A stretch of 33,522 nucleotides of DNA from a bacterium (GCA_021781865.1 JAJXVZ010000002.1:1-33522), one strand, 5' to 3'; positions 4,347 through 33,522 are shown, counted from the first letter of the stretch. The notes: generated by a model not told the origin, from the sequence alone. Program-made: numbers and translations.

Positions 4347-5692
4347 CGATCTTGAATAAAAGTCAATGCGCGGCCCTTAAGCGAAGCGCGGCCGGTACGA
4401 CCGATGCGGTGAACATAATCCTCATATGTGGAAGGAAGGTCATAATTGATGACGTGTGAGACCGCTGGAATATCCAATCCACGCGCCGCAACATCAGTGG
4501 CAACAAGCACGTTCACCTTTCCTGCCTTGAGAGCCTCCAATGCGCGCAAACGCGCTCCATGCGTCTTATTACCATGAATGCTCTCCGCGTGAATGTGAAG
4601 ACGCGAAAGCGCCTTAGCGAGCTTTTCTACGCCGAACTTGGTACGGCCAAATACAAGTACTCGACTGAACTCCCGATCTTTAAGAAGATTCGCGAGTACC
4701 TCGAATTTATCTTTTCCGCGAGGAATACGAACAACATCTTGATCAATGCTGCTCGGCGTATCGCGCATCTTTACTGAAATGATCACGGGGCTCGTGAGGA
4801 AATCACCGATGAGCCGCTCAATATCTTTCGACATTGTCGCGGAAAAGAAGAGCGTATGACGCTCTTTGCGCATTTTTGAAAGAATTATGCGCATGTCATC
4901 AATAAAACCCATGTCGAGCATACGATCCGCTTCATCGAGAACGACTGTACCAAAACCGGAAAGATCAAGCGCACGACGTTCCATCAAATCCTTGAGTCGT
5001 CCGGGCGTACCAATAACGAATGCCGGATCATTGCGAAGCATCGATATTTGAGGACCGATATTCGCGCCACCAACCGCGACCATGCCACGGAATCCGAGAC
5101 CACGTGCAAATCCTGCAAGTTCTTTTTCTATCTGCACCGCAAGTTCTCTGGTCGGTGCCATGATAAGAACACGCTCACCTTTCTGCTTCACTACTTTGTC
5201 GATAAGCGGAATGAGAAATGCGGCAGTCTTCCCCGTTCCTGTCTGAGCGAGACCGACAACGTCTTGGCCGAGCAAAGCATGTGGAATTGCTTTATCTTGA
5301 ATTGGCGTTGGAAGTTCGTATTTTCTCGCAGCGATATTTTTTTTCAGATGATCGTTAATATCGAAATCGGAAAACTTATGCTCAGGAACAAATACTGGTT
5401 CTTCAGTGCTGACAACCGCCTTATTCATGAATTTTGAAATTTCTGCTTCAGTCTCACCGAAAGAACCAAATCCGCCACGACGCGCGCCTGCGTGTCCATG
5501 ACTACCATATCCACCGCGTCCATAATTACCACGATCTGCAGGACGGCTCCCATTGCGTCTGCTGAATGAGCTGTCTCGACGAGATCCATAAGAAGGACGG
5601 GCGGAGTACTTCCCCCGTTGGTATGAGGAAGAATGTACACTACTGTGCGAGTCACTATTAGATGATTGATGATTCCAGCGCCCTATTTGCAT
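4343..5692 (-). CDS. DEAD-box ATP-dependent RNA helicase with an N-terminal Arg/Gly/Ser-rich low-complexity region
   Basis: Motifs AQTGTGKT, DEAD, SAT and HRIGRTGR are present. The first ~85 aa are RGG/SR-rich. An internal Met (MNKAVV) is an alternative start. Confidence 0.85.
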   Translation of the reverse strand: MQIGRWNHQSSNSDSHSSVHSSSYQRGKYSARPSYGSRRDSSFSRRNGSRPADRGNYGRGGYGSHGHAGARRGGFGSFGETEAEISKFMNKAVVSTEEPVFVPEHKFSDFDINDHLKKNIAARKYELPTPIQDKAIPHALLGQDVVGLAQTGTGKTAAFLIPLIDKVVKQKGERVLIMAPTRELAVQIEKELAGFARGLGFRGMVAVGGANIGPQISMLRNDPAFVIGTPGRLKDLMERRALDLSGFGTVVLDEADRMLDMGFIDDMRIILSKMRKERHTLFFSATMSKDIERLIGDFLTSPVIISVKMRDTPSSIDQDVVRIPRGKDKFEVLANLLKDREFSRVLVFGRTKFGVEKLAKALSRLHIHAESIHGNKTHGARLRALEALKAGKVNVLVATDVAARGLDIPAVSHVINYDLPSTYEDYVHRIGRTGRASLKGRALTFIQDR

Positions 5693-6141: not shown

Positions 6142-6570
6142 TCATTGCCGCTGATTGGTTACCGTCGTGGGGGTTGCAACCACCACCCCATTAACCATGG
6201 TGAAATGCATGGGCGGTATCGGATCATCCGTCCGCACGATGCAGAGATGGTAGCCGCTATCGCGAAACACTTTACCATCTTCGATAATCAAGATATTACT
6301 CTTACCCGAGTGAATAACCCCGACGAGTGAATATTCCCTCCCGTTTGATAGAACTTTTGAAATGGGTGTTGTCGCCTCGGACACGTATCCATGTCCATCG
6401 GATACACCAATCATTACCCCTGCGGCAGCAATGACGGTGAACAGTAATAGTACGGATCCAAATCGCGTGTTCGCATCTTTGCGCCACTTCAAATCTGTCA
6501 CCGCCAAGGCTGCCAGTACACAGAAAATAAAAAGCACCACGAATGAACTCAAATACACTGTCATTCCCAT
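6142..6570 (-). CDS. Hypothetical membrane protein (two N-terminal TM helices)
   Basis: A GGAGG Shine-Dalgarno sits about 8 nt upstream of the ATG. It has two hydrophobic helices followed by a beta-rich soluble part. I recognise no family. Confidence 0.55.
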   Translation of the reverse strand: MGMTVYLSSFVVLFIFCVLAALAVTDLKWRKDANTRFGSVLLLFTVIAAAGVMIGVSDGHGYVSEATTPISKVLSNGREYSLVGVIHSGKSNILIIEDGKVFRDSGYHLCIVRTDDPIPPMHFTMVNGVVVATPTTVTNQRQ

Positions 6571-6645
6571 TTCAATTCCCTCCGTTTCAATTGTAACCTC
6601 GGTGTGAGGTTCCTTTCTGTTTATTTTTTAACACATATTGCAAGA

Positions 6646-7725
6646 TCAATCAAGTTCCTGCATGGGCTTCTCAAGAAATTCAGGCTCGATGCCTATTTTT
6701 GAATCGGCTATGCGGTAGACATCCTTATCTATTTTACCAAGCTCTTTGTATCCGCTATTATAATGCGAAACGGTCGTGCCGAGTGAAATACCAAGTTTCT
6801 TATAGAATTGCTCATAAGCAGCAACGTGCTTCCCTAATTCCCCTACCCTTTGCTGAATTTCCACCGCCTTCTCTTCGATTTTAAGTGCCTTGAGTCCTTG
6901 CATAACAGTCTGGAGGTATGCAAGAAATGATGTTGGCGAAACAATAATGACCTTATATTTGCTCGCCGCCCTCTGAATGAGATTTTCATCTTCTCCACCG
7001 CCAACTTGATTCGTGAGAAGATCATAATAAATTCCCTCTGAAGGAATAAACATGAACGCAAAGTCCATTGTGTTTTCCTCGGGCCGAATATACTTTGCGG
7101 TTTCCTGGATGCGTAGTTTGAGATCATTGATGAACGCTTTTTCAAATGTTGGCTTCTCTGTCTCGCTCGCATGCACGAGACGATTGTAGTTATCAAGTGA
7201 AAACTTCGAGTCAATCGGGACAATCTTGTCATTTATGAACACTGCAGCATCGACAATCTCACCATTCTTGAATGAATACTGCATCTGGTATATCCCTGGC
7301 GGAAGTACATTCTTCAAAACGGTTTCCAGATAATATTCTCCGAGGATGCCGCGCTGCTTCGGATTTTTGAGTATGTCTTGAAGACTCTGCAGCTGTTCCG
7401 CGAAACTTTGTGTCTGTCGACCAATCTCCTTCACTGAAGTGATCTCTTGCGTTATCTCTTTGATGAGCCGGGTGGATTCGGAAAATTGGCGGTGCGCATT
7501 CTCTTGCATCGCACGAGACGTATCTGAAACGCGCGCGTCGAGCGTCTTTTCAAGATTCTGCAACTGCTGTTGCAAAAGCACCATGCTACCTTCGTCGCGG
7601 ACGGGTTCGTGGCGACGTAGGATGAAATAAAGAGCAATGCCCTGCACAACAAAAAGAGCAAGAATGACGAAAGAAATATTCAAAATGCTCATGTCTGTAG
7701 TATACTCTGCCGTATGGCTATTCAC
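6646..7725 (-). CDS. rmuC: DNA recombination protein RmuC
   Basis: It has an N-terminal TM helix, a long coiled-coil, and a C-terminal nuclease-like region with FAFMFIPSEGIYYDLL and IIVSPTSFLAYL, as in the RmuC family. Confidence 0.8.
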   Translation of the reverse strand: MNSHTAEYTTDMSILNISFVILALFVVQGIALYFILRRHEPVRDEGSMVLLQQQLQNLEKTLDARVSDTSRAMQENAHRQFSESTRLIKEITQEITSVKEIGRQTQSFAEQLQSLQDILKNPKQRGILGEYYLETVLKNVLPPGIYQMQYSFKNGEIVDAAVFINDKIVPIDSKFSLDNYNRLVHASETEKPTFEKAFINDLKLRIQETAKYIRPEENTMDFAFMFIPSEGIYYDLLTNQVGGGEDENLIQRAASKYKVIIVSPTSFLAYLQTVMQGLKALKIEEKAVEIQQRVGELGKHVAAYEQFYKKLGISLGTTVSHYNSGYKELGKIDKDVYRIADSKIGIEPEFLEKPMQELD

Positions 7726-8964: not shown

Positions 8965-10239
8965 CTACGGTTTTTGTTTCCATGTCTCTTCCTGGCGTAC
9001 GAGCCGTACTGCATCGGAAGGGTCGCCAAGCAATGCTTCAACGATTCGTTCTGTGCGAATCGCTTGAGATCCTTTTATCAATACGACATCACCGATACGA
9101 ACGATATCGACAAGAGCTGCTGCGGCCTCCTGGGAATTACTAAACCATAGTGCTTTATCGTTTTTTAACGTTGCAACGAATGCACGGGCACGAATACCAA
9201 CCGCTACAACCATATCAGCTGAACTGTCTGCAAGCGTACCTATGCGTTCATGCTCCATGACAGAATAACGTCCAAGTTCCAGCATATCGCCAAGAATGGC
9301 AATGCGCCGCTTCGCACGAGGAAATATTTTCAAGGTCGCGAGCGCTTCTTCAACCGCCGCAGGCGAAGAATTGTAGGAGTCATCGATTATAACGGAACCA
9401 TTCTTCCCGGGGAAGATCCGTCCGCGACCAGGTGGTGGTTCGTAATTTTCAAGTGCGGTGAGCGCATCAGAAAGTGGTATTTCGAGTGCATAAGCAGTAG
9501 CAAGAGCTGCAGCTATAGGAAATACTTGTGTCCTGCCAACCGAGCCACGAATAATAAGATCTCGAGTTTCTCCTGAAATACTGACTTTCGCGATCATACC
9601 CATCACCCTTTCTCCTGACTCATAAAAATCAATGTCACTAATATGGACAACGGCATTATTCGAAGTTCCGTATAAAATACTGCGCGCTGGTGTACGCACC
9701 GCACTGTCGAGTGCGTATTGGTCGTCGGATGGAATGATAAGAGGAGCATCCGCGGCAAGCGCATACGCTGGAGAAAATTCTTCTTCTCGTACCGCTTCGG
9801 GTGACGCATATGCCTCGACGTGCACAGGTATTTCAGGCAACCGTGTTATCACAACAACATCTGGCGTTGCAATGCGCAACATTCTAGCGAGGTCACCAGG
9901 TCGGTCCGCTCCTACTTCAAGCACAAGCATATTCGGATAATGATTTGGTAGAAGAAGAAGTCCGAGAGCACTTTTCATAACCGAATACCACGCGAGTGGA
10001 TTACCCCAGGGACTTTTTACGCCAAAAATAGTGAATGGGACGCCGAATTCGCTATTAAAACTCTTTTCACTTTTGCGTACAAGGAATCGTGTGGAGAGTG
10101 CCATGGCAACGGCATCTTTCGTTGATGTCTTCCCAACGGACCCGCTTACCATCACAATGCGCGGTCGATAGCGGTGCACAACGGCACGAGCAAGAAATGC
10201 GAGTTTGAAGACGACAATGGATTTAAAAATTTTCCTCAT
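8965..10239 (-). CDS. murF: UDP-N-acetylmuramoyl-tripeptide--D-alanyl-D-alanine ligase (MurF)
   Basis: It has the Mur ligase P-loop VSGSVGKTSTKD and an NSEFGVPFT motif, matching NNEIGLPLT of MurF. It sits directly downstream of ftsI in a dcw cluster. Confidence 0.75.
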   Translation of the reverse strand: MRKIFKSIVVFKLAFLARAVVHRYRPRIVMVSGSVGKTSTKDAVAMALSTRFLVRKSEKSFNSEFGVPFTIFGVKSPWGNPLAWYSVMKSALGLLLLPNHYPNMLVLEVGADRPGDLARMLRIATPDVVVITRLPEIPVHVEAYASPEAVREEEFSPAYALAADAPLIIPSDDQYALDSAVRTPARSILYGTSNNAVVHISDIDFYESGERVMGMIAKVSISGETRDLIIRGSVGRTQVFPIAAALATAYALEIPLSDALTALENYEPPPGRGRIFPGKNGSVIIDDSYNSSPAAVEEALATLKIFPRAKRRIAILGDMLELGRYSVMEHERIGTLADSSADMVVAVGIRARAFVATLKNDKALWFSNSQEAAAALVDIVRIGDVVLIKGSQAIRTERIVEALLGDPSDAVRLVRQEETWKQKP

Positions 10240-11981
10240 GGAATCGTTGTGGTTGCGACATTGCGATCGGGAGGCACAGCATAATAATTAATGAGAAAAT
10301 GTACTAGGTCAAGCAATGAAGTCGAGAGAGATTGTTCCGCATATATAACATTTTTCGGATCCTCCGTATAGAGAAGGATGATAAATTTTGGATTAAATGA
10401 TGGGAAAAAGGCGACCTCGGAGTTAAAAAACTTATTTTTGTAATAAGTGCCCGTGGGAGTTGGTAATTGCGCTGTACCAGTTTTCGCAGCTACTGACATA
10501 GTGGGAATTTTTGCGGAAATGCCATTTACCTTAAGCGCATTATCCCACAAAGCATCCATCATAACGGTCGTCTCGCGCGCCGCTGCCACTGAAAAAATTC
10601 GAGTGCCACTTCCCCAGTTGATAGGTTGCGAAACTCCTGAATTGAGAATGATACTTGAAACCAGATGAGGTCGTACGAGTATGCCGCCATTCGCTACGGC
10701 AGCAAGTGCACGAACCATTTGTATAGGCGTTACCGCAATCCCTTCACCGAAAGAAGCCGTATCATAATATATCTGTTGCGGCTTTGATAAGTTTGAGAGG
10801 AGCGCATCAGTCTCGTGTGGCAAATCTATGCCTGTTTTTTGTCCAAAAATATTTGTGAAATATTGCCGAAACCGCGACTGACCAAGTTGTTCGGCAACCC
10901 AGGATGCTCCGACGTTTAACGAGTCTTGAATGATGGTCAACATTGGAATAACGCCATATGCTTTAAGGTTCCAATTACATATGCGATCACCGTCAACCCG
11001 GATACAGCCAGTGTCATTGTACGTCGTCTGTGGTGTCACCGCTCCAGCAGTAAGTGCTGATGCCATTGTGATTGGTTTCATTATTGAACCATACTCGAAC
11101 ACGTTCTCAACTAACGGATTTACCAATAATGACGGGTCGAGATTTTGAAGGTCATTAGGATCAAAGGTTGGATATGATGCAATCGCATAGATCGCACCAG
11201 TTTTGGGATCCATGATGACGCCACCCGAGCTTTCACTTGAATATCGCTGATTTACCTTAGTAATATCGTCCTGCAATCGTGTTTGGACTTCGGGTTCGAT
11301 TGTCGTTACAATATCACCTTCGTTCGCATTTTGTGTACTAGAAAGTAAATTATTAGCGTTCGAGAAAAGTTCTGCGAAGAAATTTTTGTGAAGCGCGTCG
11401 CCTGAGCGTGAAAGGACGCTGTTGTACGCCGCTTCAAGACCAGTTTGGCCAGTGGGTGTGCCACCGGATCCATCGGAGACGATGCCTATGGATTGCGCCG
11501 CAAGCGATCCGCCCGGATAATAGCGCCAAGTCTCACGCAATACCTGTACGCCGGGAATGGCGAGAGCGGCAAGTGCACTCCCGTTTGCATTCGAAAGATG
11601 ATATGCGACCTCTATGTACACTTTAGTTTTATCCATGGCGTCGGCAAGAAACGCTGTGTGAGTAACCATTGTCGAAGACGCTATAGAATTTATAGCCACA
11701 TAAGCTGCTTCTGCATTAATAATTTCTTGCGGATCTATCGCGACAAGAAATCCGGTAGCGAGCGTTGCTGCGGAAATTAGTGTGCCATCCTTACGGGTAA
11801 AATAAATGGAACCGCGATCAAAGAGTCCGCTTCCACCCGATGCAAACTGCTGATTTGCCTTCTGCACATATTCCTGTCCATGCACAATCTGAAGAAAATA
11901 CAGACGTGCAAAAATACCTAAAGCAATCAGAATAATGATTGCGAGAACAATACGAATACGTTTACGAAACTGCGCGCGCAT
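10236..11981 (-). CDS. ftsI: Penicillin-binding protein, FtsI-type transpeptidase
   Basis: It has an N-terminal TM anchor and the motifs SIMK (SxxK), SLN (SxN) and KTGTA. It occupies the ftsI position after the ftsL-like gene. Confidence 0.85.
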   Translation of the reverse strand: MRAQFRKRIRIVLAIIILIALGIFARLYFLQIVHGQEYVQKANQQFASGGSGLFDRGSIYFTRKDGTLISAATLATGFLVAIDPQEIINAEAAYVAINSIASSTMVTHTAFLADAMDKTKVYIEVAYHLSNANGSALAALAIPGVQVLRETWRYYPGGSLAAQSIGIVSDGSGGTPTGQTGLEAAYNSVLSRSGDALHKNFFAELFSNANNLLSSTQNANEGDIVTTIEPEVQTRLQDDITKVNQRYSSESSGGVIMDPKTGAIYAIASYPTFDPNDLQNLDPSLLVNPLVENVFEYGSIMKPITMASALTAGAVTPQTTYNDTGCIRVDGDRICNWNLKAYGVIPMLTIIQDSLNVGASWVAEQLGQSRFRQYFTNIFGQKTGIDLPHETDALLSNLSKPQQIYYDTASFGEGIAVTPIQMVRALAAVANGGILVRPHLVSSIILNSGVSQPINWGSGTRIFSVAAARETTVMMDALWDNALKVNGISAKIPTMSVAAKTGTAQLPTPTGTYYKNKFFNSEVAFFPSFNPKFIILLYTEDPKNVIYAEQSLSTSLLDLVHFLINYYAVPPDRNVATTTIP

Positions 11982-11989
11982 GGCTCTTT

Positions 11990-12283
11990 TTAGCGCAATG
12001 CGGTAATGGCCGTTGCTGGAACAAATATTTGGGCAGTTGGTGCCGTGTATCCTTCCGCACTGTAATCTGTATTCGTGATTTTTGCCACCGAAGCAAAATA
12101 TTGCGATTCTAGCGTTGCAACCGCCGCCTCGTCATTCTTAACTGACTGAGAAAATTCAACCGTAAGTGCTGCATAACTCATGACAACGGCCATGAGTCCT
12201 ATATAAGTAACAGAAAGAACACCAACCATGACGTAACAAAGCTGAAGGAGAGAGAACGAAAAATGTTGGCGAAGATTAGACAT
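11990..12283 (-). CDS. Small bitopic membrane protein in the FtsL position of the dcw cluster
   Basis: I trimmed the start to the Met at 12283 (MSNLRQHF...), which gives an ATGTCTAA overlap with the rsmH stop. It has a single TM helix. The longer listed ORF would overlap rsmH by about 180 nt. Confidence 0.55.
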   Translation of the reverse strand: MSNLRQHFSFSLLQLCYVMVGVLSVTYIGLMAVVMSYAALTVEFSQSVKNDEAAVATLESQYFASVAKITNTDYSAEGYTAPTAQIFVPATAITALR

Positions 12284-13232
12284 AAGAGAGCATGTAAGAA
12301 GTTGGATTTGTTGACTCTGCATTTGGCACAGCGGCACTTCGTTCAAATACACGTAATTTCGCGCTACGCGCACGGCGATTCGCGTGAATTTCCGCACGCG
12401 AGGGTATAATCGGTTTTTTTGACACCAATAATCCCGCTCCGGTGTTTGCCGCATCACGTAGCATGGTTTTCACGATACGATCCTCGATGCTGTGGAAAGA
12501 AATAACGGCGAGGCGTCCACCAGGTGCAAGCATGCTGATCGCCGCAGCGAGGCCTTCCTGTAAACTTCCTATTTCATCGTTAACTACAATACGGAGTGCT
12601 TGAAACGTCTTCGTCGCGGGGTGAATTTTCCGTTTCTGATACCAATGTGGCGTACCTGCAATAACCGCAGCGACAAGCGCATTCGTTGTGAGAATTCGTT
12701 CGCGAGCACGCGCTGCAACAATCGAACGCGCAATACTGCGTGCGAAACGTTCTTCGCCATATTTGAAAAGTATGTCGGCAAGCACTGCCTCAGAAGAACT
12801 ATTCACAATATCAGCTGCCGTCTCTCCACCATCTCCATACATCATGAGGAGTGGCTCATCATTTTTAAAAGAAAATCCACGGAATGACGCAATTTGATAG
12901 CCACTCCATCCGAGATCAAAAAGTATTTTATCGACCGGGGCAATTCCGAGGCGCTCAAGAATACGCATAAGGTTACGGAAATTATCATTCACCAAATGAG
13001 CGATGGGACGCCCTGGTCGACGATCAAGAGCATATGCCATACGTCCTCGCTCAACCGCTGCGGAATCAGCATCGATGCCAACGATGACACCCCCCTCGCC
13101 GAGTGCGGCAAGAAGCGAAGCAAAGTGACCTGCTCCACCAATAGTTGCGTCAACAACTGTGTCGCTAGACCGCACCGCAAGCGCGGCGAGCACTTCGTTC
13201 ATAAGCACGCTATCGTGACGGACTTTTTCCAT
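12276..13232 (-). CDS. rsmH: 16S rRNA m4C1402 methyltransferase RsmH (MraW)
   Basis: The sequence HDSVLMNEVL...VDATIGGAGH...DLGWSGYQ...FHSIEDRIVK is typical of RsmH, and the gene follows mraZ. Confidence 0.9.
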   Translation of the reverse strand: MEKVRHDSVLMNEVLAALAVRSSDTVVDATIGGAGHFASLLAALGEGGVIVGIDADSAAVERGRMAYALDRRPGRPIAHLVNDNFRNLMRILERLGIAPVDKILFDLGWSGYQIASFRGFSFKNDEPLLMMYGDGGETAADIVNSSSEAVLADILFKYGEERFARSIARSIVAARARERILTTNALVAAVIAGTPHWYQKRKIHPATKTFQALRIVVNDEIGSLQEGLAAAISMLAPGGRLAVISFHSIEDRIVKTMLRDAANTGAGLLVSKKPIIPSRAEIHANRRARSAKLRVFERSAAVPNAESTNPTSYMLSYV

Positions 13233-13233
13233 A

Positions 13234-13662
13234 TCAATGGATATCGCCTACTTTCTCGGCGAATGCATCAGCATTCCGCTCAATTTCGGAAGTGTATTTT
13301 TTCCACGCACCTTCTTCCCAGATCTCGACTCGATCGGCGACGCCGGCAATTATCGCTTTTTCCTCGATCGATGCGAAAGATTTTAAATGCTCGGGAATCA
13401 GCACGCGGCCCGTCCCGTCAACCTCGACCTCGGACGAACCGGCTAAGAAGAGGCGTGCGAGACCACGCCGTGCCGCACTGCCATTCACCTCTACCGCGTA
13501 GGCCCGTGCTTGTTTCTCCCACTCCTTGCGAGAATACACGTAGAGACAATGATCAAGGCCGCGCGTTACCACAACGACGCGGCCTAGATCCTTTCGGAAT
13601 TTCGAAGGGACCGAAATCCTATTCTTTGAATCAAAAGTGTGTAGGTATTCTCCAAGAAACAT
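13234..13662 (-). CDS. mraZ: Transcriptional regulator MraZ
   Basis: It has MFLGEYLHTFDSKNRISVPSKFR and a second SpoVT/AbrB-like repeat (DGTGRVLIPEHL). It is the first gene of the dcw cluster. Confidence 0.9.
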   Translation of the reverse strand: MFLGEYLHTFDSKNRISVPSKFRKDLGRVVVVTRGLDHCLYVYSRKEWEKQARAYAVEVNGSAARRGLARLFLAGSSEVEVDGTGRVLIPEHLKSFASIEEKAIIAGVADRVEIWEEGAWKKYTSEIERNADAFAEKVGDIH

Positions 13663-13689
13663 AGCGGACGGTTATGTAGTGCGGGAATA

Positions 13690-13760
13690 GGCCACCATTC
13701 CAATTTCCCACTCTATATAACCATTATTGGATTATATACCACTTTCTCCCACATTATTAT
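13690..13760 (-). promoter_or_regulatory. Putative mraZ promoter with MraZ-box-like GTGG repeats
   Basis: On the minus strand, GTGGGagaaaGTGGT (13752-13738) abuts a perfect TATAAT (13736-13731). More GTGGG/GTGGC copies lie at 13711-13691. The -35 is weak. Confidence 0.4.
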
Positions 13761-14238
13761 ATGAAGTTATCCACACTGTAGTTCCCAGGGCATCTCCTAT
13801 ACCCTATTGATCCAGGTCCTGCAAATATCGGGGAAAAATTGGCTTGAGAACTTACTTCCATTGTTGGTCTGTATCTGCTTACTGACGAAGGACAGAGAGC
13901 TTCCTGCACCTGTGAAATGGAGTCTTATGGCGCTTTTGACCGAGTTGTGGTTCATAGATGCGCAGCATGACAAGGGCTTGTTGCATGTTCTGCGGATACT
14001 GTTTACCAAGCGATTTAATCTGTTACATCCTTGGAGAACCAGCGGTATATCTTGTGCTGCTAAAACGGTTCCTTTCCCAAGGAGAGGTATCGGTGGTACC
14101 GGAGATTCCCGAGACATGCACGCGACCAGAGAGTGTCTTTATTATCGCGTATAAGAAATGTTTTTCCATTTCGATGGTGATGGATATTTCGTATCTCGAC
14201 GGCTATGCGATCCACCCACCACGTGGGGTTTTATTATG

Positions 14239-14712
14239 TTACGATACCTTCTCGATTGTATACGTTTGTTTACCAGATGGCGTCTCAAAAGTAAAAATAT
14301 CACCCTTCTTCTTCCCCATAAGTGCTGCGCCGAGTGGTGAGACGTGCGAGAGCTTCTTCACGCGCATGTCGGCTTCTTCACTACCGACGATGGTATATTC
14401 GTGTGCGGTAGGATCCCCTTCCTTCTTGATTGATACTTTCGAATTGAAACTAATTTCACTCTTCTTTTTCCCGTCAGTGAAAATTTTTGTATATTTCACG
14501 AGTTCTTCGAGCTTCTTGACACGTTCTTCTGTTGCGGCCTGCAAATCACGCGCTTCCTGATATTCAGCGTTCTCTGAAAGATCACCGAGCGAGCGAGCAT
14601 ATTCGAGGTTCTTTGCAATCTCAGTACGACGCACTGTTTTTAAGTGCTCTAATTCTTTGACCATTTCGTCAAACTTCTCCTGCGAGACGAATGTTTCTTT
14701 TGCATTAATCAT
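14239..14712 (-). CDS. greA: Transcription elongation factor GreA
   Basis: It has the N-terminal coiled-coil region (LEHLKTVRRTEIAKNLEYARSLGDLSENAEYQEA) and a C-terminal FKBP-like domain (VSPLGAALMGKKKGD). Confidence 0.9.
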   Translation of the reverse strand: MINAKETFVSQEKFDEMVKELEHLKTVRRTEIAKNLEYARSLGDLSENAEYQEARDLQAATEERVKKLEELVKYTKIFTDGKKKSEISFNSKVSIKKEGDPTAHEYTIVGSEEADMRVKKLSHVSPLGAALMGKKKGDIFTFETPSGKQTYTIEKVS

Positions 14713-14755
14713 GTTTTAGAAGAGACTCGGCTAAGTGATGCGGTTGGTATGAATC

Positions 14756-14785
14756 ATTGTACGTGAATACTACCCTAGAATGCAA
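14756..14785 (-). promoter_or_regulatory. Putative sigma70-type promoter for greA
   Basis: On the minus strand, TTGCAT (14785-14780) is followed by an 18-nt spacer and TACAAT (14761-14756), about 45 nt upstream of the greA ATG. Confidence 0.4.
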
Positions 14786-14866
14786 TAGCATGCCCTGCCG
14801 ATCTAGATGAAATGCAAGAGGAGTAGTGGAGTATGCCCTACTGATAGACGTCAGCGCTAATTAGCA

Positions 14867-16549
14867 TTATGGTGTACTGGTTGCCGTGCCACCAACGTAA
14901 GGAGAATTCTCCGCATGCAATGCATCAAAAAGTTGTTGCATGACGTTTACGGATTCTTCACCCGCGCCCGAAGGTCCGCGTTCAAGCACAACCGCGAAAG
15001 CATATTGCGGATTATCAAAAGGGAAAAATCCTTCGGCCCAGGAATTATCATATTGATTATTTGCACCGACTTGCGCGGTACCAGTCTTCGCTGCTACTGC
15101 TAGGTAAGATAGATTAATCGCGTGAGCGAGAGCACTCGTTACACCGTCACGCATTCCCGCACGCACGACGGAAAGTAAGCTGGCGTTGACAGGTACTGTC
15201 GTGTATACGGGCGCTTCTCCTGCAAGTAGGGTTGGTGTAAAGAGTTTGCCACCATTCGCTAGCGCGGCAGTTGCACGCGCCATTTGTATCGGTGTTACCT
15301 GTACCGCGTACTGTCCGATGGAAGTATCGTATGTATTACCAAGATACCAGGGTTCGTGAAAAACCTCTTGCTTCCATGCAGGGGTCGGAATAATTCCGCT
15401 CGCCTCGTTCGGCAAATCGATGCCAGTCGAACTCCCAAAACCGAACTGGTGATACCAGTAATCGAGTCGATCGATACCAAGACCCTTCTGGCTACCGAAA
15501 CCACCGCCCACTGTGTAAAAAAATATGTCCGATGACCATGCGATTGCCTTTTCCACATTGACCGGACCGAGCGCCCTCCAACCCTTAAAGATAAAGGACT
15601 TGTTCGGATTATATGGATCTGGGATTGAAAGGAAACCTTTATCATCAATAATTGTATTTGGCGTAATGATTCCATCCGTGAGTGCGCCAGAAGCAATAAA
15701 CGGTTTTACAATGGAGCCGGGTGTATAACCCTGTATTGCATGATCAAGGAACGAATCGCCTGGACTGCTGTTATAAAGCGCAATAGTACTCGCTGGACCA
15801 CCACTTGCCATAACATTCGAGTCGTAGCTCGGATATGAGACGATTGCACGCACGGCCCCCGTGTGAACGTCCATTATGACGCCTCCTCCAGCGAGGAAAT
15901 GCTGATTGGTGGCAACATTTACAAGTGCCTGTGCGAAAAGTTGCTCGAGGTTTGCGTCAATCGTTAATTGAAGATTGCTTCCGTCCCTTGCTGGAACAAC
16001 AATGCCTTGAGAACGAACTTTGCCAAGCGCATCCACCTCAGTAAGCAACTCCCCGTTCTTCCCCGCAAGGAGCGAATTATACTCAGCCTCAAGTCCGGTA
16101 ACACCCGTTTCTTTCGTGTCATAATAGACGCCTTTTGCATCCTTCTTCGGATATGAAACATACCCGATAATCTGACTCAAGGAAGGAACCGAGTAACTCC
16201 TCACAACACTGCCATCTGGTTCCGCAACATTATTGGCAAGTACAACGCCATGCATGTCAGTAATAATTCCGCGCGATGCAAAAATTGTCGTAGCTACAAG
16301 ACTGTTGTGTGCACTCTCAGCCGCAAAAGCGGCGCCATTAATTATTTCGAGATTCCATGCACGGGCGACGAGAATAACAATGAGAATTGCGAGTACGAAC
16401 GAGAGTGAGAAGAACGTCCTTTGCGGAAGAGGTTTTTCAAGCCGTCCTTCAAAACGTGCGTGATCGAAAGCGGGCGCATTTGACGCATCGAGAAATATTT
16501 CATCCAGAGTTATTTCAATATTTTTTCGCCGTTTACGTCGCCACATCAT
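14867..16549 (-). CDS. mrdA: Penicillin-binding protein 2 (elongasome transpeptidase)
   Basis: It has a TM anchor and the motifs SIVK (SxxK) and KTGTAQ. It lies immediately downstream of mreBCD. Confidence 0.85.
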   Translation of the reverse strand: MMWRRKRRKNIEITLDEIFLDASNAPAFDHARFEGRLEKPLPQRTFFSLSFVLAILIVILVARAWNLEIINGAAFAAESAHNSLVATTIFASRGIITDMHGVVLANNVAEPDGSVVRSYSVPSLSQIIGYVSYPKKDAKGVYYDTKETGVTGLEAEYNSLLAGKNGELLTEVDALGKVRSQGIVVPARDGSNLQLTIDANLEQLFAQALVNVATNQHFLAGGGVIMDVHTGAVRAIVSYPSYDSNVMASGGPASTIALYNSSPGDSFLDHAIQGYTPGSIVKPFIASGALTDGIITPNTIIDDKGFLSIPDPYNPNKSFIFKGWRALGPVNVEKAIAWSSDIFFYTVGGGFGSQKGLGIDRLDYWYHQFGFGSSTGIDLPNEASGIIPTPAWKQEVFHEPWYLGNTYDTSIGQYAVQVTPIQMARATAALANGGKLFTPTLLAGEAPVYTTVPVNASLLSVVRAGMRDGVTSALAHAINLSYLAVAAKTGTAQVGANNQYDNSWAEGFFPFDNPQYAFAVVLERGPSGAGEESVNVMQQLFDALHAENSPYVGGTATSTP

Positions 16550-28487: not shown

Positions 28488-28509
28488 ATCATTGCAGGCA
28501 ATGATTTTT
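28488..28509. terminator. Hairpin at the boundary between the recombinase ORF and the PEBP gene
   Basis: The hairpin is ATCATTG-cagg-CAATGAT, with TTTTT on the plus strand. On the minus strand it directly follows the recombinase stop (28508-28510). Confidence 0.3.
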
Positions 28510-30079
28510 AAGTTAAGATATCAGAATCGTCCATTCGGGCGACACGATTCCGGGATAGCTCAATGGTAGAGCAGCGCCCTGTTAAGGCGTTGGTTGCAGG
28601 TTCGAGTCCTGCTCCCGGAGCAGCAATAAAACTCACCTCATTTTCTGAGAAATTTTGGCGTGCGACGCGGAGCGTCGCCCAATGTTCTACGGGGGTTTGT
28701 TCAACTTTTCGATTTCGCAAAGTCAGGTTCGAGCCGAAGATTTTTTGGAGGGAGGATTTTTTGGAGGGGAGGTCGAAGTTTTTGGCTATTTCGTCCAGCA
28801 TTGAAGCGTGGTTTACCCACTCCTGCATGGGTTCGAGCCACGCACAGGCGTTCTGTTCAAGACGGGCTATCTGCTCCTCGAACGACTTACGATCCGATAT
28901 GAGAGCGCGACGGCGTTCAAGGTAGTCGGCACGCTCGATGTCTTGGGCTATGTAGAGGTCGGTAAGGCGGTCGAGTTGGCGGGAGATGTCCTGTACTTTC
29001 TCACGCAATTCTTGAACGAACGCTTCGGTTTCGCGCGAGGTCTTATCCTTGTCCTCGTCCATAAGTCGGCGTAGCTCCTCCGCCCACAATGGCGGGAGAT
29101 CGTAGCTGGAAAGTATCGTATTGAGTTGAGGCGATAGTGCTTCCTCTCTGACATACGGCTCGGCACAGACGCCTTTCTTCTTCGTACAGCGATAGTAGGT
29201 ATGGCCTTTCTGTATCTCGCCCGTAATCATGCAACCGCACTCACCGCAACGTAGAAGCCCGCACAGGGCTTTGGGTTGGGTGGTAGCTTTCTGCGGGTGG
29301 CCTCGCTCTATAATTACTTTCTGCACTTTGTCGAACAGACGTTTTTCGATGATGGGAGTATGCCGTCCTTCGTGCAATTCTCCGCCGTAGGTAAAGAGGC
29401 CGCAGTAAAAGGAGTTGGTAAGGATAAACCGCACGCGGTCTTTGTGGAAAGGTAAGCCGCCGAAACTCTTGACGCCATTCTCAAACATAAATGTAGAGAT
29501 GTCTTCAAGACGGCGGTCGCCTTTGGCGTATAGCAGAAAGGCGGCTCGTATCACTTTCGATTTCTTCCGGTCTATAACAATCGTCTTAGACCGCACATCG
29601 TTTAGGTAGCCGACAGGCGCACTGCTCGGAAACTCGCCACGCTTAACTTTGAGACGTAGGCCACGCTTCACGTTTGCGCTTAGGTCGCGGATAAATTGGT
29701 TAGCCATGCCGAACTCGACGGACATCATCAGGACGTTATCGGTCGGGTAGTGGTTGCGGTCGTGGGTGCGGATATGCTTGATCGTCCCCTCCTGTAGAAA
29801 CCAACTGATCTGCCCGCCGTCCACTGGATTGCGTGCTAAGCGATCTAACTTCCAACAGACAATGCCCTGTGCCTCGCCGCGCTGTATGCGCTTCATCATG
29901 TCGTTGAACACAGGACGGCCGGGCATCTTGGCGGTACGCTTCTCCACAAACTCGGCGGCAACTTCTAAACCTTCCTGTTTTGCTAAAACCCGAAGCTCGG
30001 CTAGCTGGGCTTCAATAGAGAGGACTTGTTTGTCCTCGACATCGGTGGATTTGCGGGCGTAGAGGAAGTAGCTGAGCAT
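28508..30079 (-). CDS. Large serine recombinase
   Basis: I placed the start at the Met at 30079 (MLSYFLYARKSTDVEDKQVLSIEAQ), which gives the resolvase catalytic-Ser motif. It also has a recombinase domain, a Cys-rich zinc ribbon (CGLLRCGECGCMITGE...YYRCTKKKGVC) and a long coiled-coil. The last ~36 codons are antisense to tRNA-Asn. Confidence 0.9.
   Translation of the reverse strand: MLSYFLYARKSTDVEDKQVLSIEAQLAELRVLAKQEGLEVAAEFVEKRTAKMPGRPVFNDMMKRIQRGEAQGIVCWKLDRLARNPVDGGQISWFLQEGTIKHIRTHDRNHYPTDNVLMMSVEFGMANQFIRDLSANVKRGLRLKVKRGEFPSSAPVGYLNDVRSKTIVIDRKKSKVIRAAFLLYAKGDRRLEDISTFMFENGVKSFGGLPFHKDRVRFILTNSFYCGLFTYGGELHEGRHTPIIEKRLFDKVQKVIIERGHPQKATTQPKALCGLLRCGECGCMITGEIQKGHTYYRCTKKKGVCAEPYVREEALSPQLNTILSSYDLPPLWAEELRRLMDEDKDKTSRETEAFVQELREKVQDISRQLDRLTDLYIAQDIERADYLERRRALISDRKSFEEQIARLEQNACAWLEPMQEWVNHASMLDEIAKNFDLPSKKSSLQKIFGSNLTLRNRKVEQTPVEHWATLRVARQNFSENEVSFIAAPGAGLEPATNALTGRCSTIELSRNRVARMDDSDILT
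28549..28620 (+). tRNA. tRNA-Asn (anticodon GUU)
   Basis: Hand-folded cloverleaf. The parts are acceptor TCCGGGA/TCCCGGA, D arm GCTC-AATGGTA-GAGC, anticodon stem GCGCC/GGCGT with loop CTGTTAA, variable loop TGGTT, T arm GCAGG-TTCGAGT-CCTGC, and discriminator G. CCA is not encoded. Confidence 0.9.
28619..28778. repeat. Left copy of a ~160-bp inverted repeat (IR-L), starting at the last 2 nt of tRNA-Asn
   Basis: It is the reverse complement of 33232-33400. Bases 28619-28730 are identical to rc(33289-33400), and 28743-28778 are identical to rc(33232-33267). A 12-nt versus 21-nt variable patch lies between these blocks. Confidence 0.9.
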
Positions 30080-30097
30080 GTTTCCATAATAGCACAA

Positions 30098-30171
30098 ACA
30101 GGACAAAACAGGACAAGTGATTGTGGATGACAAAAACGGACAAAAGTGTATCCTTACAGGTGATGGACAAA
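30098..30171. promoter_or_regulatory. Divergent control region with iterated GGACAA(A) motifs
   Basis: GGACAA(A/G) occurs at 30101, 30111, 30138 and 30165, with a GATGACAAAA variant at 30126. On the minus strand, TATTAT (30091-30086) lies 6 nt upstream of the recombinase ATG. Confidence 0.35.
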
Positions 30172-30339
30172 GATAGACTCCTTACTGCACAGGAAGTCGC
30201 AAAGAAATTACGTGTGAGTGAACGCTCAGTTATGCGCTACATCAAAGCAAAGAAACTTCGTGCCACAAAAATCGGTCAGTGGCGTATCAAAGAAATTGAT
30301 ATCATTAAATTCCTCGGAGCCTATAGTAATAAAAGATAA
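30127..30339 (+). CDS. Excisionase-type (HTH_17/MerR-like) DNA-binding protein
   Basis: LLTAQEVAKKLRVSERSVMRYIKAKKLRATKIGQWRIKEIDIIKFL matches the excisionase-family HTH pattern. The start could be TTG 30121, ATG 30127 or ATG 30163. Confidence 0.75.
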   Translation: MTKTDKSVSLQVMDKDRLLTAQEVAKKLRVSERSVMRYIKAKKLRATKIGQWRIKEIDIIKFLGAYSNKR

Positions 30340-30344
30340 TCGTT

Positions 30345-31415
30345 ATGTCTCCGACAAAAATAAAAGTTATTGATTTGTTCTGTGGTATAGGAGGTCTGAC
30401 CCACGGACTCATTAAAGAAGGTCTTGATGTTGTCGCTGGCATTGACAATGATTCAAGTTGCAAATTCGGCTATGAATACAATAATAAGGCTCAGTTCATT
30501 GATATAGATATTCTTGAAGTTACAGCCGATAGGATCAACCAACTTTTTGGATCAGAGAAAGGCACGATTCGTGTCCTTGCGGGCTGTGCTCCTTGCCAAC
30601 CTTTTTCAAAACTGAATCTTAACGCTATTACAGAAAAACAATTAGAACCGTTAGGAAAGTTTGCCCAATTGATTGCTGAGACTCAGCCGGATATTGTCTC
30701 AATGGAAAACGTGAGTGATCTTGCCATTAAAAATAAATATCCGGCGTTCGAGAGTTTTTTAAAAGTTCTTACTGATAATAATTATCACTACAAGTACGAG
30801 GTTGTTGATGTCTCAGAGTTTGGCGTACCACAGAAAAGACGGAGACTCGTTTTACTTGCGTCAAAATTTGGTGAAATTCAATTAATAAAAAGAACTCACA
30901 AAGATAAGCGGGTTACTGTCCGAGACGTTATTAAACATTTAGAGCCAATAAAAAACGGTGAGGTAAGCAAGAGAGACCCACTACATCGATCAAGGAAACT
31001 TGCCCCGATTAACCTAAAAAGGATAAAAGCCACTCCGCATGATGGAGGTAGTTCTAATAGTTGGAGTAAGGATTTAATCTTAGATTGTCATAAAAAAAAG
31101 TCGGGTAAAACATACCGTCACACTGTTTATGGACGTATGAGTTGGGATCAACCTGCTCCAACTATGACGACACAGTGTGTAGGATTAGGAAATGGCAGAT
31201 ATGGTCACCCTACGCAAAATCGGGCGATAAGCTTGAGAGAAGCGGCAATATTTCAGACATTCCCAAAGGATTATCAATTCCTTCCATCCTCGGAGCCAAT
31301 TGTAATAAATAAAGTTGCAAAATTTATCGGGAATGCTGTACCGGTAAGACTCGGATCAGTTATTGGCAAGAGTATAAAGGAACACTTGAGCAAAAATTAT
31401 GAAGGAAGAACATAA
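30345..31415 (+). CDS. DNA (cytosine-5)-methyltransferase
   Basis: C5-MTase motifs are I DLFCGIGG, IV PCQPFS, VI MENV, VIII QKRRRLVLLAS, IX RAISLREAAIFQTFP and X GNAVPV. Confidence 0.92.
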   Translation: MSPTKIKVIDLFCGIGGLTHGLIKEGLDVVAGIDNDSSCKFGYEYNNKAQFIDIDILEVTADRINQLFGSEKGTIRVLAGCAPCQPFSKLNLNAITEKQLEPLGKFAQLIAETQPDIVSMENVSDLAIKNKYPAFESFLKVLTDNNYHYKYEVVDVSEFGVPQKRRRLVLLASKFGEIQLIKRTHKDKRVTVRDVIKHLEPIKNGEVSKRDPLHRSRKLAPINLKRIKATPHDGGSSNSWSKDLILDCHKKKSGKTYRHTVYGRMSWDQPAPTMTTQCVGLGNGRYGHPTQNRAISLREAAIFQTFPKDYQFLPSSEPIVINKVAKFIGNAVPVRLGSVIGKSIKEHLSKNYEGRT

Positions 31416-33132
31416 GCCTTTTGAATTTGAATTCTCTCTTGAAGTTCTCAATCATTTAGGCAGGGGTCTATATAGAAGTTTTGCAACTGTTATTGCGGAG
31501 GCAGTTTCAAATGCCTGGGACGCAGAAGCGAAAGAAGTTAAAATCACTCTCGACAAGACAGGTCTTATTGTTGAAGACAACGGAAAAGGCATGGATGCTA
31601 ACGATTTTAGATGTAAGTTCCTAAAAGTTGGATACTCCAGAAGGCAGGACGAAACCAATAAATCAAAGCGAAATGTAATTGGTAGGAAGGGCATCGGAAA
31701 GTTAGCAATGCTGTCTATTTCTGAAAAGGTAACTATCGTCTCAAAGAAACAAGAATCAGAAATAACCGGTGGAAAAATTAACAACCCTAAATTAGATAAA
31801 GAGATTAGAAAGGACGGCAAGTATGCTCTCGACAACTTATCAAACCAAGAGAAGACCAAACTTTTTGGCAAGCCTAATACTAAGAAGACAGGTACGAAAA
31901 TACTTTTTGAGAAAATTAAAACCAACCTCAATAGCGAAGATATGATTCGCAAATATCTTGCAACTCAATTCAATTTTATTTTTAGCATAAAAAAGGGCGA
32001 CTCGTTTACTATCAAAGTAAATAATAAACCCGTTAGCATTAAGGACTTGCAAGAGTTGAATGACAACACTCAGTTCATATGGTACGTCGGCAAAAAAGAT
32101 AAAAGGTTTGGAGATAGATTTAAGAGTCTTGATAAGGAAAAGGTTATTAAAAATACAAACTTTGTGTTTGAGGGTAAGACCATTGAGATTAAAGGCTTTA
32201 TCGCTTCCGTGAAAAGGTCAGGCCAGTTGCTTCTTAGGGGTTCGAACGGTGATTTCAAAGCAAGTGTTAATCTCTTCACAAACGGCAGATTAAGACAGGA
32301 AAGTCTTTTTGAGGAGATCGCAAAGAAAACACTTACGGAGGAATATCTTTATGGCGAAATTCACGTTGATGGTTTTGAGGACAGTGAAAACGATCGATTC
32401 ACGAGTTCACGCGAAGGGATAATCAAAGATGATCCTCTTTACCAAAAGTTTCTAGAGGAACTTGAAAAAGTGTTAGTAGTTATAATTCAAGACTGGACTC
32501 CCTGGAGAAAGGAACTCAAACAAGATGGGGATATTGATCAAGACTCAAGACCTGGTTATGAAGTAAGGATGGAAGAGAGTCGTAACCGGCGTGAAAAAGA
32601 CTTCAGAGATAAAATAAATGAGAATATAAGTGATAAAGCTACTAAAGACAGTTTAAAGGAGAAGCTAAAATCTCTTTCATATAAAAATACCTTGATTTAT
32701 CAAGATTTGTTTATTTTGGAGAATATTCTTAGAGAATATATTAAACTTAAAAAAGTAGAAGAAAATTACTTTGACACTAAAATAGCCGACGAAAAGAATA
32801 TTATTGATCGTATTAAGCAAGTCAGAGGAGACAGAAGGGCAGACGAAGCAACGCATGCGCTGAAAGGGAAAATTGTAAAAGAAGAACACTTTCTAAACTA
32901 TGCAGATTTGTATGATCTTGGGGAAATAATCGATCTTTATTTGGAAAAGAATAAAAAGAACCCAACTCCTAAGAAATATAAGAAAGAATTGTCTGCTGAC
33001 GCTAAAGAAATCAATCCAGTTAGAAATCCAATCATGCATACAAACGAGATAACCGATCATGTATTGGTATGGGATAAGATTAAAAACCTCATTGATTATA
33101 TTGAAAGGATAAAGGATAAGAAAGTAAAATAA
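31399..33132 (+). CDS. GHKL (HATPase_c_3/MORC-like) ATPase with a C-terminal HEPN-like domain
   Basis: Bergerat-fold motifs are EAVSNAWDA (31498-31524), DNGKGM (31576-31593) and GRKGIGKLA. The C-terminal helical domain has ILENILREYI, LYDLGEIIDLY and VRNPIMH (Rx4H, 33022-33039). It overlaps the MTase gene by 17 nt. Confidence 0.75.
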   Translation: MKEEHKPFEFEFSLEVLNHLGRGLYRSFATVIAEAVSNAWDAEAKEVKITLDKTGLIVEDNGKGMDANDFRCKFLKVGYSRRQDETNKSKRNVIGRKGIGKLAMLSISEKVTIVSKKQESEITGGKINNPKLDKEIRKDGKYALDNLSNQEKTKLFGKPNTKKTGTKILFEKIKTNLNSEDMIRKYLATQFNFIFSIKKGDSFTIKVNNKPVSIKDLQELNDNTQFIWYVGKKDKRFGDRFKSLDKEKVIKNTNFVFEGKTIEIKGFIASVKRSGQLLLRGSNGDFKASVNLFTNGRLRQESLFEEIAKKTLTEEYLYGEIHVDGFEDSENDRFTSSREGIIKDDPLYQKFLEELEKVLVVIIQDWTPWRKELKQDGDIDQDSRPGYEVRMEESRNRREKDFRDKINENISDKATKDSLKEKLKSLSYKNTLIYQDLFILENILREYIKLKKVEENYFDTKIADEKNIIDRIKQVRGDRRADEATHALKGKIVKEEHFLNYADLYDLGEIIDLYLEKNKKNPTPKKYKKELSADAKEINPVRNPIMHTNEITDHVLVWDKIKNLIDYIERIKDKKVK

Positions 33133-33190
33133 GAATCAGCATCGGGAGTTTTGTCGATCTGAAAGATGGCGAAAAATAAATTGCCTATAA

Positions 33191-33451
33191 CACGCGCACG
33201 GGAAGGGCGGGGCAAGTGTTATATCTAGCGTCTTCGACCTCCCCTCCAAAAAATCCTCCCTCCAAAAGTCTTCGGCTTTCGTATTTTTGAACCTGACTTT
33301 GCGAAATCGAAAAGTTGAACAAACCCCCGTAGAACATTGGGCGACGCTCCGCGTCGCACGCCAAAATTTCTCAGAAAATGAGGTGAGTTTTATTGCTGCT
33401 TGTTTGTACGACCCAATACGAACGCATTTTACCCGAAACGGAGGCCTCTAG
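33191..33451 (+). other. ATG-less in-frame copy of the recombinase C-terminal coding segment with a different tail
   Basis: The frame is open from 33191 to TAG at 33449-33451. It translates to FDLPSKKSSLQKSSAFVFLNLTLRNRKVEQTPVEHWATLRVARQNFSENEVSFIAA plus CLYDPIRTHFTRNGGL. The recombinase has ...QKIFGSNLTLRNRK...FIAA plus a tRNA-antisense tail. Confidence 0.6.
33232..33400. repeat. Right copy of the ~160-bp inverted repeat (IR-R)
   Basis: It is the reverse complement of 28619-28778, with one 9-nt frame-preserving indel patch at 33268-33288. Confidence 0.9.
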
Positions 33452-33522
33452 GGTAGTCATTCGGGGGTAGTTTACCCCTACATTCACCCCTACATTCGAC
33501 CTATACCGGAATGTAGGGGTAG

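Follow-up and report, generated by a model that had tools for sequence, protein, structure and literature searches.

Long inverted repeats beside a bacterial tRNA-Asn gene as part of a probable large serine recombinase island with an inverted spare attachment site

We analyzed the bacterial contig JAJXVZ010000002.1 (assembly GCA_021781865.1, positions 1-33522; the window hereafter, which at 33,522 bp is the whole contig), in which two long inverted repeats, IR-L (28619-28778, minus strand) and IR-R (33232-33400, plus strand), enclose most of a large serine recombinase (LSR) gene and a few cargo genes directly beside a tRNA-Asn gene. This region probably belongs to an integrative island moved by the LSR, which keeps an inverted spare copy of its attP site and whose recombinase segment is occasionally flipped by homologous, non-programmed exchange between the repeats.

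In this arrangement, the window holds the tRNA-proximal part of such an island. The attP of these islands lies inside the 3' end of the recombinase gene and consists of a coding arm (X), a core of 3-5 nt, and a second arm (Y) that codes for the final 13-17 residues. When an island enters a tRNA gene at its 3' end, this site is split: X becomes joined to the tRNA (attL, represented by IR-L) and Y comes to lie at the far end of the island (attR). A spare, intact, inverted attP (X'-core-Y-Z) is kept inside the island, and by homology IR-R is its X' arm. From the chromosome inward, the integrated island reads Y.Z, segment A with cargo, inverted (Z.Y.X'), segment B with the recombinase and further cargo, and X beside the tRNA; the window spans the portion from the tRNA to Z. 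Gene conversion would keep the paired copies of X, and likewise those of Y.Z, nearly identical, and an occasional crossover between copies, most simply by host homologous recombination, would invert segment B. In the less common isomer that results, X' lies against the tRNA and the recombinase regains its native tail. The anatomy, its boundaries, the mobility, the coding tail, the concerted evolution, and the existence of the two isomers are shown by the comparisons below; the agent of the inversion and the purpose of the spare attP are what we propose. For the spare attP we favor a role as a recombinase-binding, autoregulatory operator by the recombinase promoter, together with homology for module or cassette exchange; other candidate roles are a self-trapping inversion substrate driven by the recombinase and a second integration site of a circle with two inverted attP copies. 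In minimal elements, the spare attP stands directly upstream of the recombinase gene, beside a conserved hairpin.

The repeat pair and the recombinase gene

A repeat search over the window and direct reading of the sequence agree on the repeat pair, with the same block lengths and patch sizes as in a preliminary description of this contig. An outer block of 112 nt (28619-28730 and 33289-33400) and an inner block of 36 nt (28743-28778 and 33232-33267) are each 100% complementary to their partners, and between the blocks lies a patch of 12 nt on the left (28731-28742) and 21 nt on the right (33268-33288). To judge from this search, a perfect inverted match of 112 nt within 33.5 kb is far beyond chance. 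The outer end of IR-L coincides with the 3' end of the tRNA-Asn(GTT) gene, as that description had noticed; ARAGORN and Rfam (73.7 bits) place the tRNA at 28549-28621 on the plus strand, so that IR-L opens on the final base of the acceptor stem.

The LSR gene occupies 28508-30079 on the minus strand and encodes 523 aa from its ATG, with the open reading frame (ORF) open from 30133. The domains Resolvase (PF00239), Recombinase (PF07508), and Zn_ribbon_recom (PF13408) all score above their Pfam cutoffs, the protein matches an XisF/Ccr-like family of NCBIfam, and its catalytic motif R-K-S-T is invariant in 31 homologues. Translations agree with the earlier account of what the two repeats encode. 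IR-L is the 3' coding end of the recombinase gene, specifying LSR residues ...FDLPSKKSSLQKIFGSNL...SFIAA, and the plus strand of IR-R specifies the same peptide with QKSSAFVFLNL replacing QKIFGSNL (a 3-residue insertion), followed by a different 16-aa tail, CLYDPIRTHFTRNGGL, and a stop. IR-L holds the T-loop-like GGCTCGAACC (reverse complement at 28725-28735), which is interrupted in IR-R by the patch at 33268-33288, a 9-nt insertion relative to IR-L. It is the IFGSNL codons of the LSR that spell GGCTCGAACC, mimicking the tRNA T-loop/Y-arm motif ∼112 nt from the crossover.

Past the repeat, the LSR ORF reads a further 111 nt antisense to the tRNA, adding 37 residues (28508-28618) in place of the native tail. 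Relatives of this recombinase number in the thousands, mostly from metagenome-assembled genomes of the Candidate Phyla Radiation (CPR)/Patescibacteria. In the best 120, the sequences agree up to ...SFIxA and then diverge: tRNA-antisense tails are found in 81 and an L-Y-x-x-A-R-T-Y-F tail in six. The ORF crosses attP, as in elements that carry attP inside a gene, in that native tails and tRNA-antisense tails occur together within single 90%-identity clusters, with fusions to at least four different tRNAs. Database homologues accordingly carry spurious C-terminal peptides, e.g. APRVGFEPTTNSLTG and AAGLGFEPR, that are tRNA antisense translations. Y read in the recombinase frame gives x-L-Y-x-x-A-R-T-Y/F-F-x-x-N, with a stop after 12-18 codons. 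Among 44 distinct Y sequences, Leu is written with six codons and Arg with CGA, AGA, and CGT, and diversity falls in the order position 3 > 1 > 2; since the codons turn over synonymously and the amino acids are kept, Y is evidently translated somewhere, and this codon usage identifies it as the native C-terminus of the LSR, under coding constraint. With attP lying inside the LSR gene as X-core-Y, integration puts the tRNA in place of Y. We rejected the idea that IR-R encodes a small protein started in the patch, since the inserts come in lengths not divisible by three and relatives do not keep the start codon.

Inside both repeats lies a GC-rich perfect palindrome, GCGACGC-GGA-GCGTCGC (28662-28678 and 33341-33357), which codes for a conserved A-x-L-R-x-A-R peptide; relatives have an equivalent palindrome.

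Attachment sites, empty site, and mobility

In the window, the putative internal site continues beyond IR-R with Y (33401-33451, plus strand), comprising the 16 codons and stop of the native tail, and Z (33452-33522, plus strand), a conserved stretch downstream of attP that runs to the contig end 122 nt past IR-R. Among related loci, a T-loop-like heptamer, TCGAACC, begins at +14 from the repeat end in 36 of 44 tRNA flanks, and a similar heptamer begins at +18 in 31 of 41 Y flanks; the tRNA-Asn and Y of the window have theirs at 14 and 18 nt, respectively. In serine integrases, a motif bound by the zinc-ribbon domain is shifted by 4-5 bp between attB and attP half-sites (PMC11722253). The displacement seen here, resolved for the tRNA and Y sides only, matches that shift, which would make the tRNA the B-type half of the chromosomal attachment site and Y a P-type half. 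IR-R, Y, and Z together then read as an internal inverted copy of attP. Two other readings of this region were discarded: a palindromic attP built from IR-L and IR-R, since the native tail and the empty site (below) show that the partner of X is Y; and chromosomal DNA beyond IR-R, since that flank moves together with the element and recurs, conserved, in different genomes.

A third site, S.core.Y.Z, lies kilobases past the second copy, on the recombinase strand, in at least eight loci that have enough flank. Its Y.Z copy extends over 150-344 nt at 80-100% identity, and the preceding DNA, S, is unrelated, sharing the 3-5-nt core only. Judged by these joins, the third site is attR, where chromosome meets the tail region. 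In one locus (L064), a second tRNA gene has its 5' end 17 nt away from S, and in another (L074) S ends in a terminator-like hairpin. Locus L125 holds all three sites: S|Y.Z at 269-509, inverted Y.Z at 6659-6899 with X' at 6896-7072, and X at 9211-9376 followed by tRNA-Asn.

The preliminary description had suggested looking for an empty site in related genomes, and one was found for L125. The predicted junction of S, GGCT, and tRNA-Asn is present in six JGI metagenome contigs; one of them, L131, aligns to L125 at 1-272 and 9373-15188, sharing a single GGCT (a 4-nt core) and lacking 9.1 kb. This empty site fixes the boundaries of the L125 element exactly, far beyond the inner repeat, and L125 in this way has the precise short-core junction and recoverable empty site of an LSR integrative element. 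At the far side of the islands we sought the classical direct repeat of the tRNA 3' end and found only 3-5 shared nt. For the window element itself, a scan with the region upstream of its tRNA-Asn returned no empty site.

Independent copies place the window element at more than one target. In another sample, contig L088 matches window positions 33522-28616 at 100% identity over 4907 nt, including both repeats, Y, and Z, and past the core it has a different, non-tRNA flank, so that the element is joined to two flanks at 28616-28621. The crossover core of attL falls in this interval, in the stretch where the end of the tRNA meets the start of IR-L: identity between IR-L and IR-R ends at 28619, and identity to the L088 insertion at 28616. 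A further contig, L089, represents the window's own locus in a third sample (99.8% identity), and a recombinase >90% identical lies at a tRNA-Gln gene in L086. Across the window, L088, L089, and L086, the X joined to the target is each time that of the recombinase gene itself, and on the strength of these junctions the window element is mobile. In the L088 flank, CCGCATGTTGGTCGACGTTAGAACC at 4919-4960 contains the heptamer TAGAACC, spaced roughly as in Y, and an NYN-domain gene is next.

An assembly artefact was also considered and rejected. L088 is an independent MEGAHIT k141 contig carrying both copies, its k-mer of 141 exceeds the 112-nt repeat, and long contigs and a closed chromosome share the layout. 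The L088 contig stops only 14 nt beyond the end of the window contig; we attribute the break after Z to the repetition of Y.Z within the family at lengths above the assembler k of 141. Exact scans of GTDB genomes and JGI metagenomes for the window repeat/attP sequence returned nothing.

The inverted copy among related elements

From GTDB genomes, we fetched 75 related CPR loci. An upstream inverted copy of the last ∼45-55 recombinase codons is present in 58 of them, with a median length of 157 nt (range 75-219 nt). Measured between outer ends, the copies span 1.6-10.6 kb, and in 16 loci the recombinase alone lies between them. The inner boundary of the inverted copy is almost always (F/Y)DLPSKK. 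Many second copies have an indel directly 5' of CGAACC (the IFGSNL codons), at the same spot as the window patch; one subfamily carries an insertion of 9-17 nt there, another a deletion of 46 nt. The best match of X' is the X of the same locus in 58 of 59 cases, with 98% identity in the outer 112 nt as compared to 64% for the best foreign locus, and this nearness to the gene end of its own locus implies that X and X' evolve in concert. The outer 112 nt beside the core is the best-conserved part of the repeat.

The recombinase-attached copy abuts the 3' end of a convergent tRNA with an overlap of 3-5 nt; in 36 loci this tRNA is called by ARAGORN, and 12 isoacceptor types are represented. Some target tRNAs carry group I introns and were missed by ARAGORN (L024 at 6459-6746, L012, L017, L039, L047, and L052). 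At the other end, the second copy is followed by Y, which the different genomes share. The same layout is found on long contigs or a closed chromosome (L003, L012, and L017).

In two cases, elements of this island family are near neighbors: L037 has two side by side at neighboring tRNAs of one genome (1374-11491 and 12264-∼21030), and L072 shows the same at 1-120.

Orientation of the recombinase segment and alternative explanations

The preliminary description proposed that recombination between the repeats would invert the core and give the recombinase another tail. The geometry holds: exchange would flip the recombinase together with the helix-turn-helix (HTH), methyltransferase (MTase), and restriction enzyme genes, and the other tail that it would join is the native C-terminus. 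As to the orientations themselves, both are found among relatives, and the window element has so far appeared in one. L084 and L125 are 99-99.9% identical, with the recombinase segment inverted relative to Y.Z and segment A and the switch point inside the repeat; the L084 recombinase has the native tail. L072 has a clean reciprocal junction, tRNA-Thr joined to X' (with its patch), followed by hairpin, cargo, and a recombinase pointing away, and in L081 the recombinase is joined to Y.Z, with an inverted X' at the opposite contig end. The flipped state is rare (about 2 of the 75 loci and 6 of 120 proteins), the window orientation accounting for ∼95%. All three marker differences between X and X' stay with their own copy in L084, which places the L084/L125 exchange in the outer ∼95 nt or the core and fits homologous and site-specific exchange alike.

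Of the possible catalysts, host homologous recombination would be the simplest, because the repeats share ∼150 identical nt and a pairing of attL with attP is foreign to the known serine integrases. To our knowledge, characterized serine integrases pair only attP with attB, or attL with attR given a directionality factor; we know of none that recombines attL with attP.

Several observations weigh against our preferred explanation. All three assemblies of the window element (the window, L088, and L089) show one orientation. In L084, X' (560-600) breaks off 40 nt short of the core and runs into the 3' end of an ORF resembling a Mur ligase, through either a real deletion or a chimeric contig, and L081 and L072 each miss one junction where their contigs end. 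A 95:5 isomer bias is unlike the equilibrium of free homologous flipping, and selection or directionality would have to be added. No inverted copy appears in four loci that have 10 kb of flank upstream, and the spare attP may on that account not be essential. Our explanation does not account for the indel patch that recurs at one fixed spot in X'. Finally, segment A and attR of the window element would lie off the contig, and their presence is predicted by homology only.

An unlikely alternative is a programmed switch. In this reading the recombinase itself, possibly aided by the HTH protein, would exchange attL and the internal attP at the core, toggling its own C-terminus and with it activity or directionality, and would settle in the crippled, tRNA-fused form. 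Isomer junctions lie exactly at the core (L072; L084/L125), the native tail is under protein-level selection, the 95:5 bias fits a one-way trap better than free flipping, and the outer 112 nt by the core is the best-conserved part of the repeat. The pairing of attL with attP, however, is outside the reactions just listed; exchange at the core alone would not hold 150 nt identical, so that gene conversion is required anyway; and a flipped copy of the window element was not found among its three assemblies. An attP-attP tetramer of the SPbeta integrase has been seen on cryo-EM grids (PMC11722253), which again favors the switch. We likewise think it improbable, to the same degree, that the attL, attR, and internal inverted attP form a three-site design by which the enzyme flips its own gene between full-length and tRNA-fused forms; were this true, DNA orientation would set direction and activity with no separate directionality factor, a self-limiting integrase logic.

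Less probable again is that the two copies serve as alternative attP sites, with no inversion in situ: the excised circle would integrate via either copy, orientation would record the copy used, and the repeats may also permit flipping or amplification of the circle. The internal copy does run unbroken through core, Y, and Z, and it matches the functional site exactly over the 50 bp usual for an att site, the L072-type junction of X' with a tRNA is what integration via the second copy would leave, and native-tail recombinases occur on short contigs without a tRNA (L006, L082, and L083). Equal sites, however, predict that about half of insertions would use the spare, and ∼95% use the recombinase's own site; moreover, no circular contig was recovered, and the minimal elements are without replication genes. 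IMG/VR likewise holds no close relative (best identity 36%), and a phage origin is for that reason not supported. One of the short contigs, the public metagenome contig L082, begins (1-60) with the Illumina adapter AGATCGGAAGAGCACACGTCTGAACTCCAGTCAC....

The preliminary description had also offered a transposon-like element with terminal inverted repeats ending at 28619 and 33400, and here the result is negative. Long inverted repeats do bracket the recombinase, and ∼16 relatives have the recombinase only between them, but identity from insertion to insertion runs at least 122 nt past 33400 (L088), relatives extend kilobases further to attR as delimited by the empty site, which exceeds the inner repeat, and the conserved flank past IR-R codes for the native tail. 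No target-site duplication accompanies the repeat pair, whose flanks, tRNA and Y, are unrelated. IR-R is internal, the termini of relatives are Y.Z and X, and the only recombinase is the LSR, with no DDE-type transposase; we rejected this reading as extremely improbable. We attach a similarly negligible probability to a chance relic of a decayed head-to-head element (the last of the earlier suggestions) or an assembly artefact, for although IR-R is a fragment without an upstream recombinase body and the contig ends 122 nt later, the same fragment, inner (F/Y)DLPSKK boundary, and patch recur in 58 of 75 loci, homogenized in concert with the resident gene, and the independent assembly L088 agrees, with a k-mer of 141 longer than the repeat.

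The cargo bay next to attR is exchanged among close relatives. L125 and L128, at the same tRNA-Asn locus, have an identical recombinase segment and different defense cargo in segment A, so that the bay bracketed by Y.Z turns over. Its contents are a ResIII helicase with an N6/N4 MTase in one of the two and GmrSD with two MTases in the other, and the outer Y.Z copy of L128 is 83% identical to the inner one.

Relation to known systems

The recombinase resembles serine integrases such as those of phiC31, Bxb1, A118/LI, and SPbeta in its catalytic, recombinase, and zinc-ribbon domains, in conservative insertion at a short core, and in a spacing of the outer motif that differs by 4 nt between chromosomal and element half-sites. 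The present islands differ from those systems in that attP lies inside the recombinase gene and integration rewrites its C-terminus, in that many different tRNAs are targeted rather than one locus, and in that the element retains a further attP, intact and inverted, which is flanked by 150-500 bp of identity; for a directionality factor there is only a candidate HTH gene. In the repressor of mycobacteriophages BPs and Brujita and in the SSV1 integrase, attP also lies in coding sequence, and integrated and free forms have different C-termini. Unlike in those cases, the altered gene here is a serine recombinase, and the new tail comes from the antisense strand of a tRNA.

The invertases Hin, Gin, Cin, and Pin share with this system inverted repeats in coding sequence, inversion that swaps a protein C-terminus, and a recombinase beside or inside the segment. 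In contrast to those small enzymes, which end in an HTH, the present recombinase is a 523-aa integrase-type LSR, the repeats measure at least 150 nt as compared to 26-34 bp, the isomers stand at ∼95:5, and the sites are attL and attP, with differing outer halves (tRNA versus Y), which sets the segment apart from an invertase system. By analogy, the yeast 2-micron plasmid (Flp/FRT) is similar to the circle that our layout predicts, with two long inverted site-bearing repeats and two flippable segments, although Flp is a tyrosine recombinase acting in a eukaryotic replicating plasmid and we observed no circle or replication function.

Tycheposons (bioRxiv 10.1101/2020.12.28.424599), and likewise staphylococcal cassette chromosome (SCC) elements with Ccr, are small integrase islands at the 3' ends of tRNA or conserved genes, with defense or adaptive cargo, arrays, and cassette turnover, as are the present islands; a minority of tycheposons use large serine recombinases (bioRxiv 10.1101/2020.12.28.424599). 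Those elements are flanked by direct partial-tRNA or att repeats, whereas here 3-5 nt are duplicated and the conspicuous repeats are inverted, one of them internal. Our literature search found no paper describing a three-site layout with an inverted spare attP.

Serine integrases are major genome-engineering tools, and control of their direction is an active question. The family examined here is abundant in CPR/Patescibacteria and takes many tRNA genes as targets, apparently through reading of the T-arm. If the spare site regulates the enzyme or serves as its substrate, it would offer a new form of directionality control and give engineers a multi-site design ready for use. Should it do neither, the layout would still show how a common class of defense island in tiny genomes is bounded and built from modules, with inverted repeats flanking each of two bays for cargo. 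The layout also accounts for the ‘GFEPTT’-type spurious recombinase C-termini in annotation, and for the frequent contig breaks at recombinase genes of CPR islands.

Cargo genes and other features

Between the repeats of the window, three plus-strand genes follow the divergent recombinase gene, with a G+C content of 0.35-0.40 as compared to ∼0.48 for the host. The first gene of the cargo operon (30121-30339) encodes an excisionase-type HTH protein (Pfam HTH_17; TIGR01764) that, by its family, could be a controller or directionality factor. Next is a type II C5 cytosine DNA MTase (30345-31415), assigned by profile matches, and then a GHKL-ATPase restriction enzyme of the BbrUII/HgiDII kind (31399-33132; Pfam HATPase_c_3; PADLOC REase_II, 1.6e-49), whose NCBIfam match (8e-87) is below the curated cutoff.

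Z contains repeated 12-15-mers, two direct (33471-33485 and 33486-33498) and one inverted (33508-33522). The shared ∼12-mer, ACCCCTACATTC, present at 33471-33522 in these two direct copies and one inverted copy, is common to a subset of related elements, and the array looks like a protein-binding array or a hairpin. Two relatives with these short motifs (L005 and L036) encode TrwB/TraD-like coupling ATPases in segment A.

Neither the repeat nor Y/Z nor the hairpin matches an Rfam family, the only hits being tRNAs, group I introns, and, elsewhere, a SAM riboswitch. The hairpin in question lies just inside IR-R (33187-33222, plus strand) and has a 7-bp stem and an invariant G-rich loop, GCGCACGGGnGGGnGGGGCAA. 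It is found in 33 loci; its inner four pairs are 100% paired, with compensatory changes, and none of 500 shuffles (0/500) reaches the observed score. Across loci, the stem measures 5-7 bp, with variants such as AACAC/GTGTT, GGTGC/GCACA, and ACCAC/GTGGT.

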